This document shows, piece by piece, positions 1 through 6,000 of a stretch of DNA of 30,396 nt (positions are counted from its first letter, which is position 1; every line of letters starts with the position of its first letter). The DNA lies in IMG/VR virus record IMGVR_UViG_2737471845_000005, one strand, 5' to 3'. The stretch is from a virus (lineage: Duplodnaviria > Heunggongvirae > Uroviricota > Caudoviricetes). Position numbers: made by a program.

Positions 1-3000
1 GGATGGCTGGTCGAAAATGATGTTGGGCTTTCTCTACCTAACTTTGAACGTCATAACGGAAAAAGCTCTAAAAAACGGGCGGTTACAAACGAGCGAGTTA
101 CAAAAATACGCGAACTGAAACGAAAAGGTAACGCTGCCAGCGTTACACAAACGGATCAAAAAGCGTTACCAGAGGAAGAGGAAGAGGAAGATCTAAATAC
201 TGATCTCCCCCTAAATCCCCCTCGCCAAAAACGAGCGTCTAAAAAATTCGAGCCGGAGGCTATTGAGCTGCCTGATTGGTTGCCGGAAACACTCTGGCAT
301 GAGTGGGTCCGGTTCAGACAGGTATTGCGAAAACCGATTCGAACGGAGCAGGGCGCTAACGGGGCGATACGGGAACTGGAAAAATTCCGTCAGCAGGGTT
401 TTACACCTGAGCAGGTGATTCGACACAGCATCGCCAATGAATACCAGGGCTTGTTCGCACCGAAAGGTGTTCGGCCTGAGACGTTGCTCCGACAGGTTAA
501 CACCGTCTCGTTGCCGGACAGTGCGATCCCGCCAGGCTTCAGGGGGTAACAGACCATGAAAAATATTGCGACAGGCGGCGTTCTGGAGCGTATCCGCAGA
601 CTGACCCCACCACATGTAACCGCCCCATTCAGAACGGTTGCGGAGTGGCGCGAGTGGCAACTTGCTGAAGGCCAGAAACGTTGCGAGGAGATCAACCGCC
701 TGAATCGTCAGTTGCGGGTGGAAAAAATCCTGAATCGCTCTGGCATCCAGCCGTTGCACCGCAAATGCTCGTTTGCGAATTACCAGGTGCAGAACGAAGG
801 GCAGCGATACGCGTTAAGCCAGGCGAAATCCATCGCCGATGAACTGATGACCGGGTGTACAAATTTTGCGTTCAGCGGAAAACCTGGTACCGGGAAGAAT
901 CACTTAGCGGCAGCTATCGGGAATCGCCTGCTGAAAGACGGTCAGACAGTGATTGTGGTTACCGTGGCTGATGTTATGAGCGCCCTGCACGCCAGCTATG
1001 ACGACGGGCAGTCAGGCGAAAAATTTTTGCGGGAGCTGTGCGAAGTGGATCTGCTGGTTCTTGATGAAATTGGCATTCAGCGCGAGACGAAAAACGAGCA
1101 GGTGGTGCTGCACCAGATTGTTGATCGCCGGACAGCGTCGATGCGCAGTGTGGGGATGCTGACAAACCTGAACTATGAGGCCATGAAAACATTGCTCGGC
1201 GAGCGGATTATGGATCGCATGACCATGAACGGCGGGCGATGGGTGAATTTTAACTGGGAGAGCTGGCGTCCGAATGTTGGTCAGCCAGGAATTGAGAAGT
1301 AATTTTTACCGGGAGGAAATTTTAATGGAGACTGTTTTTGACGCACTGAAAGCAATGGGAAAAGCCACATCCATAGAACTTGCTGCGCGACTTGATATCA
1401 GTCGTGAAGAAGTGCTGAACGAACTATGGGAACTGAAAAAGGCTGGTTTTGTTGATAAAAGCGCGTACACCTGGCGTGTGGCTGATAACAACGTTCAGCA
1501 GGAACAGCCAGCGCAGGCAGAACAGCCGGAAGAAACCACCACAGCAACAGTAGCGAAAATCTCAGAGTGCGATTTAACCGCGACGATTGAACAACGCGGA
1601 CCACAAACGGCTGATGAGCTGGCTACATTGTTTGGTACCACATCACGCAAAGTGGCTTCAACGCTGGCAATGGCAATCAGCAAAGGTCGTCTGATTCGCG
1701 TAAATCAGTGCGGTAAATTTCGTTACTGCATGCCGGGCGGTAATTTACCAGCAGAGCCGAAAGTTGAATCGGTAGCGGAAACCGATGGTAAAGCCTTTCC
1801 TCAGCCTGCAGGTGTTGCGTTACCAGTACAGGAAGCTGCAACACAGGAAGAAATTAAAACAGAAACTGTGGCGGACATTGTGCAGTCGCTGCCATCGTTT
1901 ACTGAAACGCGAGCGGATGACCTGGTTTTACCATCGCTTCATATGGCAAACCGCGAACTGCGCCGGGCGAAAAATCATGTCCAGAGGTGGGAGCGAGTCT
2001 GCGCCGCGCTGCGGGAGCTGAACAAGCACCGGGATATTGTTCGACAGATTTTCGATTCCTCCAGTCGTATTGTGTCGGAAAAGTGATTGCCGGAGGCACC
2101 TATGGCAAAAGTATTTACACCAGAAGAGCGGGAAAAAATTAAAGGGCAGGTTGTTGAACTTGTACGTCTGAGCGGTCGCGAGACGTTACGGGCTCTGGAG
2201 GCTAAAACCGGTGCATCAAGGTATTACATAAGCACTCTCGCCAGAGAATTGGTCGCCAGTGGTGATGTTTACAATTCAGGCTACTGATTATTCCCGTCTG
2301 AGCAGGCGCGTAAAGACTGGCAAAACGCCCGCAAAAAACTATCAAGGGCAAAGGTGAAGAAACCGGTTGTGGTTGATCCTGACCTTATCTGGTCATTACC
2401 AGACGGAGAAATACGTCGTTACAACAGACGACAGAACATAATCTGTCGCGAGTGCCGGAATAGTGAGGTTATGCAGCGAGTGCTGGCGTTTTATCAGGGG
2501 AGTTTTCAGGAGGTGGCACAGTGAGCGGGATTGACTACCAAGAATTGGCTGCTGCCAACGCTTTCCTGGCGGATGTGCGGGCAGGGGCGTTTAACGACCT
2601 TTGCGCGGCGTTTGTCAGGCACGCAAAAATTGCAGGACTGGGTGATGCCGATACCGTAACGCTTAAGGAAGTGACAGAAGCATTGTTGCATTGTGCGGAA
2701 CAGATTCGCGCGGCTGAATAATTAAATTTAGTGTTGTAAATAAAATTTAATCCTTAACCGGAGGGATTTCTGCACCCTCAAATAATCAGGAGGCCGCCCA
2801 AAAGGGCGGAACAGATAATGCTTACGTTGAAACATTTTATCGACATACCAACATGGTTAGCCGTCATTGCTTTTGTTAAAATACACATCCACTTTTCTGT
2901 GCAATGTTTAACCACTGGTCATATCAAATGGTATTCATGCGAACCATGATATAGAATCATGGCTTGAGAGAGTCGATGAAAGCGCAACTATGGTATGAGA

Positions 3001-6000
3001 GACATTGATGTAAGAAAGGCTGTGCATGCCAAGATTCTGAGAGATCATCATAAAGATCCTGACACCCTAATCATTGATGAGTTTACGATGAATCTAGGGG
3101 CTAGCAGAGCTGATATAGCAGTGATCAATGGGCTTATACATGGTTATGAGTTGAAGAGCAAGAGTGATAACTTGCTCAGATTACCAGCGCAGGTGCAACA
3201 TTACTCATCAGTGATGGATAAAGTAACGTTGGTTGTCTCTGATTGCCATCTTTATGATGCTTTAAGCATAGTTCCATCATGGTGGGGGATAAAGCAAGTT
3301 ACGCAAGGTGCACGGCAAGGTATCCATTTAAAAACAATTCGAACTAGCAAGTTGAATCCACAAGTGGACAAACTTTCCTTAACAATGCTTCTTTGGAAAG
3401 ATGAATTGCTTTCCCTATTAAGTGATGTAGGGGAGCTACAGAATTTGAAAAATAAACCTAAACGCGTCTTATGGTCAAAACTCGCCAATAGTATGGATGT
3501 TGGCGAGCTTCGTGAAGCTGTTCGAGTTAAACTTAAAGCCCGTAAAGAGTGGCGAGTTGCTCAACAACCTTAGTTATGTGATGGTTTTGCCCAATCCTAC
3601 GCCATACCTCTGGGCTACCAAATTTATAGTTACCAGAGGGATTGGCTTTGTAGGCTTGATACTCGTTTGCATAATATTCTATGTCTCTATCTCCCGCACA
3701 GAATGTAGGCCCTGAATATTCTCGATGAGCAAGAATATCCTCACTATGTTTACCATATTGTTCATAACCAAAGCGATTAGCTACTCTTCCTCGAAATACC
3801 CAAAAGTCATTATCTCCAGAGTATCTGACGCTGGCAGATACGCTAGGGAATCGCGTCGAAAGCCTATTAAAGTCGGGGTGCTGTACTCCATAATCACTAT
3901 AAATCACATTTCTGGCAAGTTCTTTTCTATTCATTAAACTCTGCCATAAAATCCACTCGATTCGAGGTTGAGAATATAGACCAACAGAAATATCACTGAG
4001 ATCTGTAGGAAATGAACCCCCAGAAAGAATCACTTTTCTGTATTCATTGAGGTGCGCCAGATTGTTTATCAATCCCATTGCCAAAGTATATAGTTCGCCG
4101 GAATTAAGTTTATCCTCGGTTAACTCATCTCTTAAGTCAATAATTATATCAATATTTGATAAAGGAATTCCCAGATGATTAATGTAATGCGTTATTAATT
4201 GTGGGTTAACCAGATCTAACGTGGTTAATCTCAAGCATATTTCATTCTGCATTAATTCATCAATCGCTCTTTTATAGTTAGATGGGCGAGTTGGTGAACT
4301 GACAGGAATAACTCTTATCCCCATATCTCTAACTTGATGAACCGCATTTATTATAGGGTAATGATCTTCAGGAGAAATAAAATGCTCTTCAATTAATAAT
4401 CCATCAATATAAACACCTTGCATATCTGAGCAAGATTTTGAGACTTTCTTTCCGAACTCTATAAGAGTCTCGTTATAACTCTTTAAGGCAATACCTGAAT
4501 CAGGGTCAATTGGCACTGGTTCAATTTCGAGTAATGGCAAAATTTTTGATTTCTTTTCAATGGATAGCTGCGATAAAGCTGATAACTCAGAACGTTTCGC
4601 TTTCAGAATAGGAATATATGAAATTGTCATGTTAATACCTTATACAGAATCAATTAACAATTAATGGTTCTTCGGACATTGAAATTTATATCGCAAAAAT
4701 TGGCAAACTCTCCTCGACTACTCACTTGTGGGTATCCTGGCGTAAAAGGAATGACTTGGCAATACCCGGTGTGATCATAAGTCATTGAAAATGATCATTT
4801 TTATCAGTCTTTCTTCCATGATGAATGCTAATGCCATTTGATTTGTTGAGGTGAAAACTGTTAAAAATCAAAACGATGTAATTGAAATGAACGTTCGGTA
4901 GCATTCACGCTTTAAATGTTTCTTTTGTGCTGATTGGATGAATTTTGGTCACTTATGATGAGAGATGTTGCAGGAAAAGAAGTTGGCATTGATCTATTGG
5001 ATAGTTAGAATTGCTGCGGGTGCTTGAGGCTATCTGCCTCAGGCATGAACACCAAAAGGCAGACAGAGAAAAGCCCCAGTTAACATTACGCGTCCTGCAA
5101 GACGCTTAACATTAATCTGAGGCCCAATCTATGTCTCACAAATGTAGGTTAGCCTCTTACGTGCCGAAAGGCAAGGAGAAGCAGGCTATGAAGCAGCAAA
5201 AGGCGATGTTATTCGCCCTGATTGTCATCTGTTTAACCGTCATAGTGACGGCACTGGTAACGAGGAAGGACCTCTGCGAGGTACGAATCCGAACCGGCCA
5301 GACGGAGGTCGCTGTCTTCACAGCTTACGAACCTGAGGAGTAAGAGACCAGGCGGGGGAGAAATCCCTCGCCACCTCTCATGTGTCAGGCATCCTCAACG
5401 CACCCGCACTAAACCCGCTTCGGCGGGTTTTTTGTTGCGCGCTGAATGCGCAGGGTGAAAAATAACCATATATTTGATTATATACACAACAAAAAATAAA
5501 AGTCATTGTACCTGCACATTAAATAATCAAATATACGGCGTGAAATAAATATTTTTCAGATTAATATTTTTGTCTCTATGTGGATATAACCGTTTGTACT
5601 TATAAACTCGGAGGCATCGTGGAAAAAATAAAGAAACTATTTAGTTGCAAATACGCAGTCATACGTCGTGATGACCTGTCAGTTATAGTCGAAATGGATT
5701 ACTTCCCTGAAACCCCAAAATCAATGATGTATCGTAATGGTCGAAAGGCAATTTTTTTACCGATGAGGGTAAGTGACATTATGGGAAATGATAAACTGCT
5801 GGATGAATTGCGAGTCAGAGCATCATGTTAGTATTGGCATTAATTCTGGTATACTACATAACGGGCTGAACACCCATTCTACTGCGCCAGCGGAGAACTA
5901 CGATGGCGCATATACAACTGGTCAAACAAACCTCTTCCGGATTACTTCTCCCGGCGACGCCGGAGAGTTGCGATTTTTTGCATCAAATCAAAATAGGTGA

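Follow-up and report, generated by a model that had tools for sequence, protein, structure and literature searches.

The stretch of DNA analyzed here (30,396 nucleotides, IMG/VR virus record IMGVR_UViG_2737471845_000005, Caudoviricetes; hereafter, the window) is an Escherichia coli Rac-type lambdoid prophage, and at the junction of its replication and nin genes it carries two convergent genes whose 3' ends overlap. One, at positions 2995..3573 on the + strand, encodes a cII-like protein (sce7726/Phage_P4_cII) of 192 amino acids; the other, at 3533..4630 on the - strand, encodes a beta-family protein of 365 amino acids. By analogy with the characterized relatives of these genes, the pair would be a core-only anti-phage defense cassette, i.e., one that lacks the gop gene of its P4 counterpart, and we hold this reading with moderate confidence. 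The beta and cII genes of the window are already annotated family members, and no new kind of system is involved. However, gop-beta-cII and PD-lambda-2, which are catalogued separately, share one invariant two-gene core, and it is this core that the window carries in bare form.

The two genes and their predicted products

The cII-like protein matches the NCBIfam sce7726 family over its full length (1.7e-56) and the PADLOC model 'cll' (2.4e-28), and its homologs carry the Pfam family PF26915, 'Phage_P4_cII'. Compared directly with P4, for which the sequence of the non-essential region (GenBank M27748) was used, it is 28% identical to P4 cII (BLASTP, E 2e-17). Four residues, E29, D40, E52, and K54, are invariant in both cII alignments, one of 27 sequences that takes in P4 cII and a Gordonia phage protein, the other of 52 sequences, and they make up a predicted catalytic motif of the form E...D...E-x-K. 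A restriction-endonuclease-like alpha/beta fold is predicted, which would make the protein a PD-(D/E)xK nuclease with an intact motif; the best match of this putative nuclease among solved structures is the uncharacterized protein SPO1766 (3dnx).

The beta-family protein matches Pfam PF14350, 'Beta_protein', over its full length (1.3e-52) and PADLOC PD-Lambda-2_C at 2.2e-41 and 5.8e-38; its end-to-end identity to P4 beta is 23% (E 9e-9). It is predicted to be an enzyme-like triose-phosphate isomerase (TIM) barrel. The invariant residues of the family are Y5, K12, E15, D76, R115, R134, D165, R223, D246, R269, Y270, R344, and H351, most of which (e.g., Y5, D76, R134, D165, D246, R269, and Y270) lie at or just after the predicted strand ends; because this is where TIM-barrel enzymes have their active sites, we infer that beta is an enzyme. 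A search of a viral library with the beta fold gave the Gordonia phage ortholog as its sole match, and sequence searches of both pair proteins against PDB chains gave nothing significant.

The genes share 41 bp at their convergent 3' ends (3533..3573), an overlap that is a hallmark of the whole family. An earlier reading of the window, made from the sequence alone, had already placed a convergent pair, which it did not identify, within an AT-rich island at 2722-5900, and the pair is indeed there, with this overlap. Both proteins are full-length members of the two families that make up the sce7725/sce7726 pair (NF033832; PF14350 plus PF26915), and RefSeq labels window-like pairs 'beta family protein' and 'sce7726 family protein'. 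These are annotation families only, with no assigned function.

Family architecture and the two characterized relatives

The convergent, overlapping arrangement is present in nearly all of the loci sampled. For the cII-seeded scan, one genome was taken per species; 450 genomes had a relative, and the best 80 loci were analyzed. Beta is convergent to cII in 77/80, and 75 of these 77 pairs share 11-158 bp at their 3' ends; two of the three remaining loci end at a contig edge. Among 44 beta-seeded viral contigs, cII is convergent and overlaps beta by 20-140 bp in 43, the lone exception having a beta gene that is truncated and rearranged. Pooling the two scans gives 121 loci from many phyla, with beta and cII convergent in 120 and their 3' ends overlapping in 118. 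Taxa in the cII-seeded set include Enterobacterales, Vibrionales, Xanthomonadales, Bradyrhizobium, Myxococcota, Acidobacteriota, Bacillota, Nocardiopsis, Dehalococcoidia, Saccharimonadia, Gastranaerophilales, and Armatimonadota; the bare form, i.e., the pair without a recognized partner, spans Enterobacterales to Firmicutes, Actinomycetota, Chloroflexota, and candidate phyla.

The gene directly upstream of beta was surveyed in 70 distinct sequences. It is an Xre-M78 gene of the PD-Lambda-2_B type in 14/70 loci (PADLOC 2e-31 to 3e-145) and a PIN-like gene for a protein of ~200 amino acids in 3/70; gop was found in 0/70, and 53/70 have none of these three genes. The three screened partners are likewise missing from all 44 viral contigs. 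When loci were picked through the PD-lambda-2 B gene alone, two of the three had the order HigB–M78–beta together with a convergent, overlapping cII, whereas cII was missing and beta frameshifted in the third. The original ECOR42 PD-lambda-2 locus was also sought with a PD-lambda-2B-like protein sequence; there were thousands of environmental homologs, and the matches listed did not include a named entry from E. coli. Because of the upstream-gene survey and the B-picked loci, we regard the convergent beta and cII genes as the constant core, and gop or HigB/M78 as variable additions to it.

In E. coli, P4 gop-beta-cII gives protection from lambda and P1 (Rousset et al. 2022, PMC9122126), and resistance to phage has been shown only for the three-gene P4 locus (PMC9122126). 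In work by Ghisotti (1990) that PMC9122126 cites, beta is the antidote to Gop, which is toxic in its absence; the toxicity of the locus is set off by the coliphage accessory protein orf184 (Silas et al., bioRxiv 10.1101/2023.04.06.535777). Both beta and cII of P4 are homologous to the window pair (23% and 28% identity, respectively), the P4 order gop→beta→ ←cII contains the same convergence of beta and cII, and both loci occupy variable accessory slots in temperate elements. The two loci also differ. Upstream of beta, P4 has gop, a small toxin gene whose product has two transmembrane segments, whereas the window has no gop; P4 cII is 264 amino acids long and has a C-terminal extension that the 192-amino-acid window protein lacks; and beta and cII are separated by a 27-bp gap with a terminator in P4, whereas they overlap by 41 bp in the window.

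The toxic component of PD-lambda-2 is B, an Xre-M78 protein, which is neutralized by the HigB-like protein A (Vassallo et al. 2022, PMC9519451). The C component of the system is a beta homolog, to which the match of window beta is strong (2.2e-41), and PD-lambda-2-type loci of other bacteria have the same convergent cII overlapping beta. The system has a HigB-like A and an Xre-M78 B, whereas the window has neither; as published, PD-lambda-2 comprises three genes, and cII is not part of the definition.

The window was searched for partners of both kinds. P4 Gop is a 133-amino-acid protein with two hydrophobic segments, and when it was compared with the whole window by tblastn, the best E value was 0.85, far from the locus; there is, in other words, no detectable homolog. 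No open reading frame (ORF) of at least 50 amino acids lies upstream of and co-directional with beta in the window, and no HigB-like or Xre-M78 ORF was found upstream of beta. The AT-rich spacer upstream of beta (4631..5005; 35% G+C, hereafter GC) contains no conserved ORF and no gop, and it presumably holds the beta promoter. Diverged cassettes of Dickeya, Enterobacter, and Photorhabdus (L014-L016; 64-72% DNA identity) align with that of the window from the cII ATG to the beta ATG or to a point a few bases from it. Because the homology is limited to the two genes, the spacers at 2810-2994 and 4631-4990 are private to the window cassette and contain no conserved small gene.

Some candidate toxin genes were considered and rejected. 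A 43-amino-acid ORF at 2818-2949 might have been a small membrane-toxin gene beside beta, and the small minus-strand ORFs at 4654-4904 might likewise have encoded toxins, but the spacers in which they lie are not conserved in the diverged cassettes. The hok gene to the right of beta was also considered as a stand-in for gop; it was rejected because hok/sok lies at the same place beside unrelated cargo, and it is present in 4726 genomes.

Separately, the PIN-like upstream partner is roughly 200-230 amino acids long, starts 'LIDTDAFCKL...', and has no PADLOC match (L010 3395-3997, L062, L088, L091); it would be a further accessory variant of the beta family. PD-lambda-2-type operons with a fourth gene, a convergent cII-like nuclease gene overlapping the beta 3' end, were noted at L009/L034, L051, L055, L057, L059, L061, L071, L072, L087, L089, L090, L093, L095, L096, L141, and L142.

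What the bare pair might do

The places in which the pair is found bear on a conflict function, if only circumstantially. A bare cassette in Dickeya occupies the P2 portal|gpA slot, beside HicAB; this slot is a defense hotspot according to Rousset and Vassallo (PMC9519451 for Vassallo). The Enterobacter cassette is in the same post-DUF1627 lambdoid slot, beside a HEPN gene, and those of Photorhabdus and of a second E. coli variant lie between Rz and terminase. A cassette in a Pyrinomonadaceae metagenome-assembled genome adjoins a type III restriction-modification system, and that of Gordonia phage Powerball is near the integrase gene and HicAB. The pair has been seen in the known defense hotspots of both P2 and P4.

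As a defense cassette, the pair would act as a prophage-borne superinfection exclusion or abortive infection module. Both genes would be transcribed in the lysogen from private promoters of the cassette. Nucleic acid would be cut by the cII-like nuclease as effector, under the control of beta, an enzyme or sensor that would either hold the nuclease back or license it, and the overlapping convergent transcripts would couple the expression of the two genes. We consider an anti-phage role fairly probable, but the division of labor between beta and cII is put forward with much lower confidence.

A number of points weigh against a defense role for the pair as it stands in the window. The toxic components of the validated relatives, Gop in P4 and Xre-M78 in PD-lambda-2, are both missing from it. 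The validated ECOR42 PD-lambda-2 clone reached, by its published coordinates, only about 390 bp past the system on either side; a cII gene there would probably have been cut short, and beta may therefore not need cII. PADLOC's own 'beta' model fits window beta weakly (1.8e-4). Beta has no specific structural neighbor, and its enzyme label comes only from the positions of its conserved residues. Each gene of the pair has a private spacer of 185-375 bp, and matches to consensus promoters in these spacers are at chance level. Finally, in the literature searched we found no experiment on a beta/cII pair without gop and HigB/M78, and no paper that gives cII a role.

The analysis also permits a broader and more tentative proposal, to which we give somewhat less than even weight, namely, that the bare pair is an autonomous, phylum-spanning anti-phage system and the common engine of gop-beta-cII and PD-lambda-2. 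On this view, the effector would be cII, gop or HigB/M78 would be optional, and the TIM-barrel beta would represent an enzymatic sensor or regulator of a new kind. The stand-alone form, the universality, and the shared-core status of beta/cII do not appear in the literature searched. Current defense-finder definitions are not known to accept the pair without the add-on genes (gop or HigB/M78); were the pair autonomous, such programs would miss most instances, that of the window included. The bare form is the commonest in our sample (53/70 distinct genome loci and 44/44 viral contigs), and if it does defend, defense annotation would be undercounting the beta/cII family; cII, so far without a function, would probably be the effector, and the TIM-barrel beta would represent a component of a new kind. 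At 2.2 kb, the E. coli cassette is small; it is also intact and easily cloned.

The pair can also be read in terms of addiction. The cII-like nuclease would then be a toxin and beta its antidote, in a toxin-antitoxin-like module that keeps the prophage or the cassette in place and gives no protection from phage. Antisense-regulated toxin loci typically have convergent transcripts that overlap; the cassette is small, self-contained, and present at many mobile-element sites, and hok/sok, another addiction-type locus, adjoins it. Beta has, furthermore, been described as the Gop antidote in P4 (Ghisotti 1990, as cited in PMC9122126). We nevertheless judge a pure addiction module to be unlikely, because both characterized relatives give phage defense, the cassette recurs in validated defense hotspots, and known proteinaceous antitoxins do not resemble a 365-amino-acid TIM barrel in which many polar residues are invariant. 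Addiction and abortive-infection defense can of course coexist and are not mutually exclusive.

Less probable still is that the pair serves the DNA metabolism of the prophage itself (in recombination or repair, as do other genes of the nin region) and is no conflict system at all. The pair does lie in the nin region, beside a NinB-like gene and YbcO; the best solved-structure match of the nuclease is SPO1766 (3dnx); one source names a homolog a 'DNA repair protein MmcB-like protein'; and the Gordonia phage homolog is annotated 'exonuclease'. However, just 1.7% of E. coli genomes have the pair, versus 24-66% for the flanking genes, and the places where it is found are unrelated to one another: the P2 and P4 hotspots, the junction of Rz and terminase, and chromosomal locations beside restriction-modification genes. 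Moreover, beta opposes the early rightward operon, and the two genes always move together as a separate unit.

A restriction-modification-like arrangement, in which beta marks or alters self DNA or the nucleotide pool and the cII-like nuclease cuts unmarked invader DNA, would suit the predicted restriction-endonuclease fold and intact catalytic motif, and type II restriction-modification systems often have convergent genes that overlap at their 3' ends, but we think it quite improbable, as no methyltransferase domain was found in either pair protein or in the neighboring ORFs, nor any other known modification domain, and both P4 gop-beta-cII and PD-lambda-2 are described as abortive or toxin-like and not as restriction.

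The accessory slot and other features of the window

The best full-length match to the window is E. coli APEC-O117H42 (97.9% identity), in which the same genes come after recE, kilR, ydaT, and ydaV. The cassette is part of a region between a DUF977/LygF (Ren-like) gene and a DUF1367 (NinB/Orf-like) gene, i.e., the replication/ren | nin junction, which is known as a classical mosaic site of lambdoid phages. Here, at the ren|ninB junction, a mosaic accessory slot is filled by modules that are exchanged independently of one another. Compositional islands are routine at lambdoid variable sites, and the value of this one is in its cargo.

The sequence-only reading had described 2722-5900 as AT-rich and suggested that it is a horizontally acquired moron cluster, and its compositional claim was borne out: the GC of this interval is 0.396, versus a mean of 0.511 (standard deviation 0.023, minimum 0.463) for 426 same-size windows outside it (z = -4.9). 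Codon usage agrees, GC at third codon positions being 0.30 in beta, 0.36 in the cII-like gene, and 0.35 in the small ORF to the right of hok, versus 0.42-0.63 in the flanking genes; by both measures, the interval is strongly unlike the rest of the prophage. In a 500-bp sliding profile, GC falls from ~0.50 to 0.34-0.42 over roughly 2750-5000, and a second dip, to 0.39-0.43, occurs at 5250-6000. The low GC is not uniform, as the hok/sok piece at 5006-5437 is 52% GC and hence not AT-rich.

Relatives with the same DUF977 and DUF1367 flanks have other genes in the slot, and this indel comparison, together with composition, supports horizontal acquisition. Rac 442/2 has five small ORFs there, vB_EcoS-666R9 a DNA-binding protein and others, and mEp460 a 449-amino-acid ORF; the slot of E. 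coli O121 RM8352 holds a methyltransferase, the same beta/cII pair, IS3, hokD, and a doc toxin. Acquired accessory content thus stands, but the idea of a single island does not: several modules assort independently, and hok/sok is neither AT-rich nor rare. The proposed left edge at 2722 must also be moved, since the variable region begins at ~2525. Promoter-like and hairpin elements that had been noticed in the spacers are no more frequent than chance allows (8 promoter-like matches versus 9.3±3.5 in shuffled sequence, and 3 terminator-like sites versus 2.7±1.6), and the repeats found are short two-copy matches.

The left flank is the DUF977/LygF/Ren-like gene (2102..2524, +; PF06163 on both halves; phrog_142, 'Ren-like exclusion protein'). 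An in-frame stop at 2285-2287 takes the place of a Gly codon of the APEC-O117H42 ortholog, and the gene is therefore a pseudogene or is split into pieces of 61 and 56 amino acids. Homology to the relatives L004 and L007 stops at about 2515-2525 (blastn, as for the boundaries that follow), and a 66-amino-acid ORF at 2521..2721 (+; phrog_27745 at 6e-43; 54% GC) is already inside the variable region. Next comes a short conserved linker of ~95 bp (2714..2809), which is 85-99% identical to L004, L005, and L007 and terminates in the hairpin GGCCGCCC-AAAA-GGGCGG. The linker is kept although the cargo downstream of it differs in L004 and L005, and it is probably a recombination boundary for module swapping. 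To its right are the mobile cargo block, which consists of the beta/cII cassette and its two private spacers (2810..4990; GC 0.378), the hok/sok module (5006-5437), and a small-ORF segment (5438-5878; 35% GC), the boundaries of all three having been set against same-flank relatives. Right-flank homology to relatives with the same flanks begins at ~5880, and the DUF1367 gene itself, for a NinB/Orf-like recombination mediator, is at 5903..6502 (+; PF07105 at 3e-98; phrog_319).

The frequencies of these modules over 5426 complete E. coli genomes differ widely. The DUF977 flank is present in 3596/5426 and the DUF1367 flank in 1329/5426, whereas the cargo at 2810-4990 is present in only 93 (92 of them at ≥99% identity), hok/sok in 4726 (median 2 copies), and the segment at 5438-5878 in 173; at least 80% of the full span 2300-6500 is found in just 14. 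The RM8352 cargo is 99.1% identical to that of the window, versus 84% for the left flank and 94.5% for the right, and because of this difference we conclude that the cargo has been laterally exchanged recently.

The hok toxin that had been placed in the island is present (PF01848 at 1e-23), but hok/sok is no part of the cassette; it is an ordinary type I locus that occupies this place in most relatives. The hok mRNA leader/sok antisense region lies at 5018..5193 (+) and matches the full-length model of Rfam RF01794, 'sok' (118 bits versus a gathering score of 59, E 1e-26), so that the supposedly non-coding spacer at 4631-5130 in fact includes the start of this RNA match. A promoter-like TTGGCA-17-TAGAAT is at 4983-5011. 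The hok gene (hokD-type, 51 amino acids; 5188..5343, +; PF01848 at 1.3e-23; phrog_251; also annotated by RefSeq on a near-identical locus) most likely starts at 5188, with the ATG at 5131 as an in-frame upstream start. An intrinsic terminator at 5411..5430 (+), found by a terminator scan, closes both the hok transcript and the module, the homology of which stops at 5437. The locus is 93% identical to hokW/mokW/sokW of 933W and does not differ notably from such prophage loci, as it has a Hok peptide, a sok/leader RNA, and a terminator.

The upstream 'mok' ATG (5131-5190; L005 3277-3340) is in frame with hok in the window, mEp460, and APEC-O117H42; in Rac 442/2, a 1-nt indel puts it out of frame. 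RM8352 has an IS3 element in place of the hok leader and sok region.

The small GTG-start ORF noted in the sequence-only reading is also real. It encodes 70 amino acids (5619..5831, +; phrog_1813 at 6e-33), lies in the 35% GC segment at 5438-5878, and most likely starts at the GTG at 5619, as RefSeq has it on a near-identical locus. It was compared with rem, which comes next after hok in Rac 442/2 and mEp460; the position is the same, but there is zero similarity, and the ORF belongs to phrog_1813. In the AT-rich spacer upstream of it, at 5466-5538, is a 19-nt inverted repeat (89% complementary, arms 35 nt apart), which may be an operator or due to chance.

Three further places in the window deserve mention. 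Downstream of the Q-like DUF1133 gene, Rfam matches to isrK (73.7 bits) and C4 antisense RNA (66.7 bits) lie directly upstream of an ORF6N-domain gene (7376-7561 and 7614-8225), a set that resembles the P1/P7 c4-ant-type RNA-controlled antirepressor module. Between this module and the downstream genes is a second AT-rich patch (8250-9400; GC 0.40-0.42) with a 189-amino-acid ORF that has hydrophobic segments (phrog_11870) and a convergent 130-amino-acid ORF (phrog_14506), neither with a PADLOC match; this patch may be another moron. A third AT-rich patch (26250-27000; GC 0.40), among the tail and baseplate genes, coincides with a 241-amino-acid ORF at 26273-26998 that has no Pfam, PHROG, or PADLOC match.

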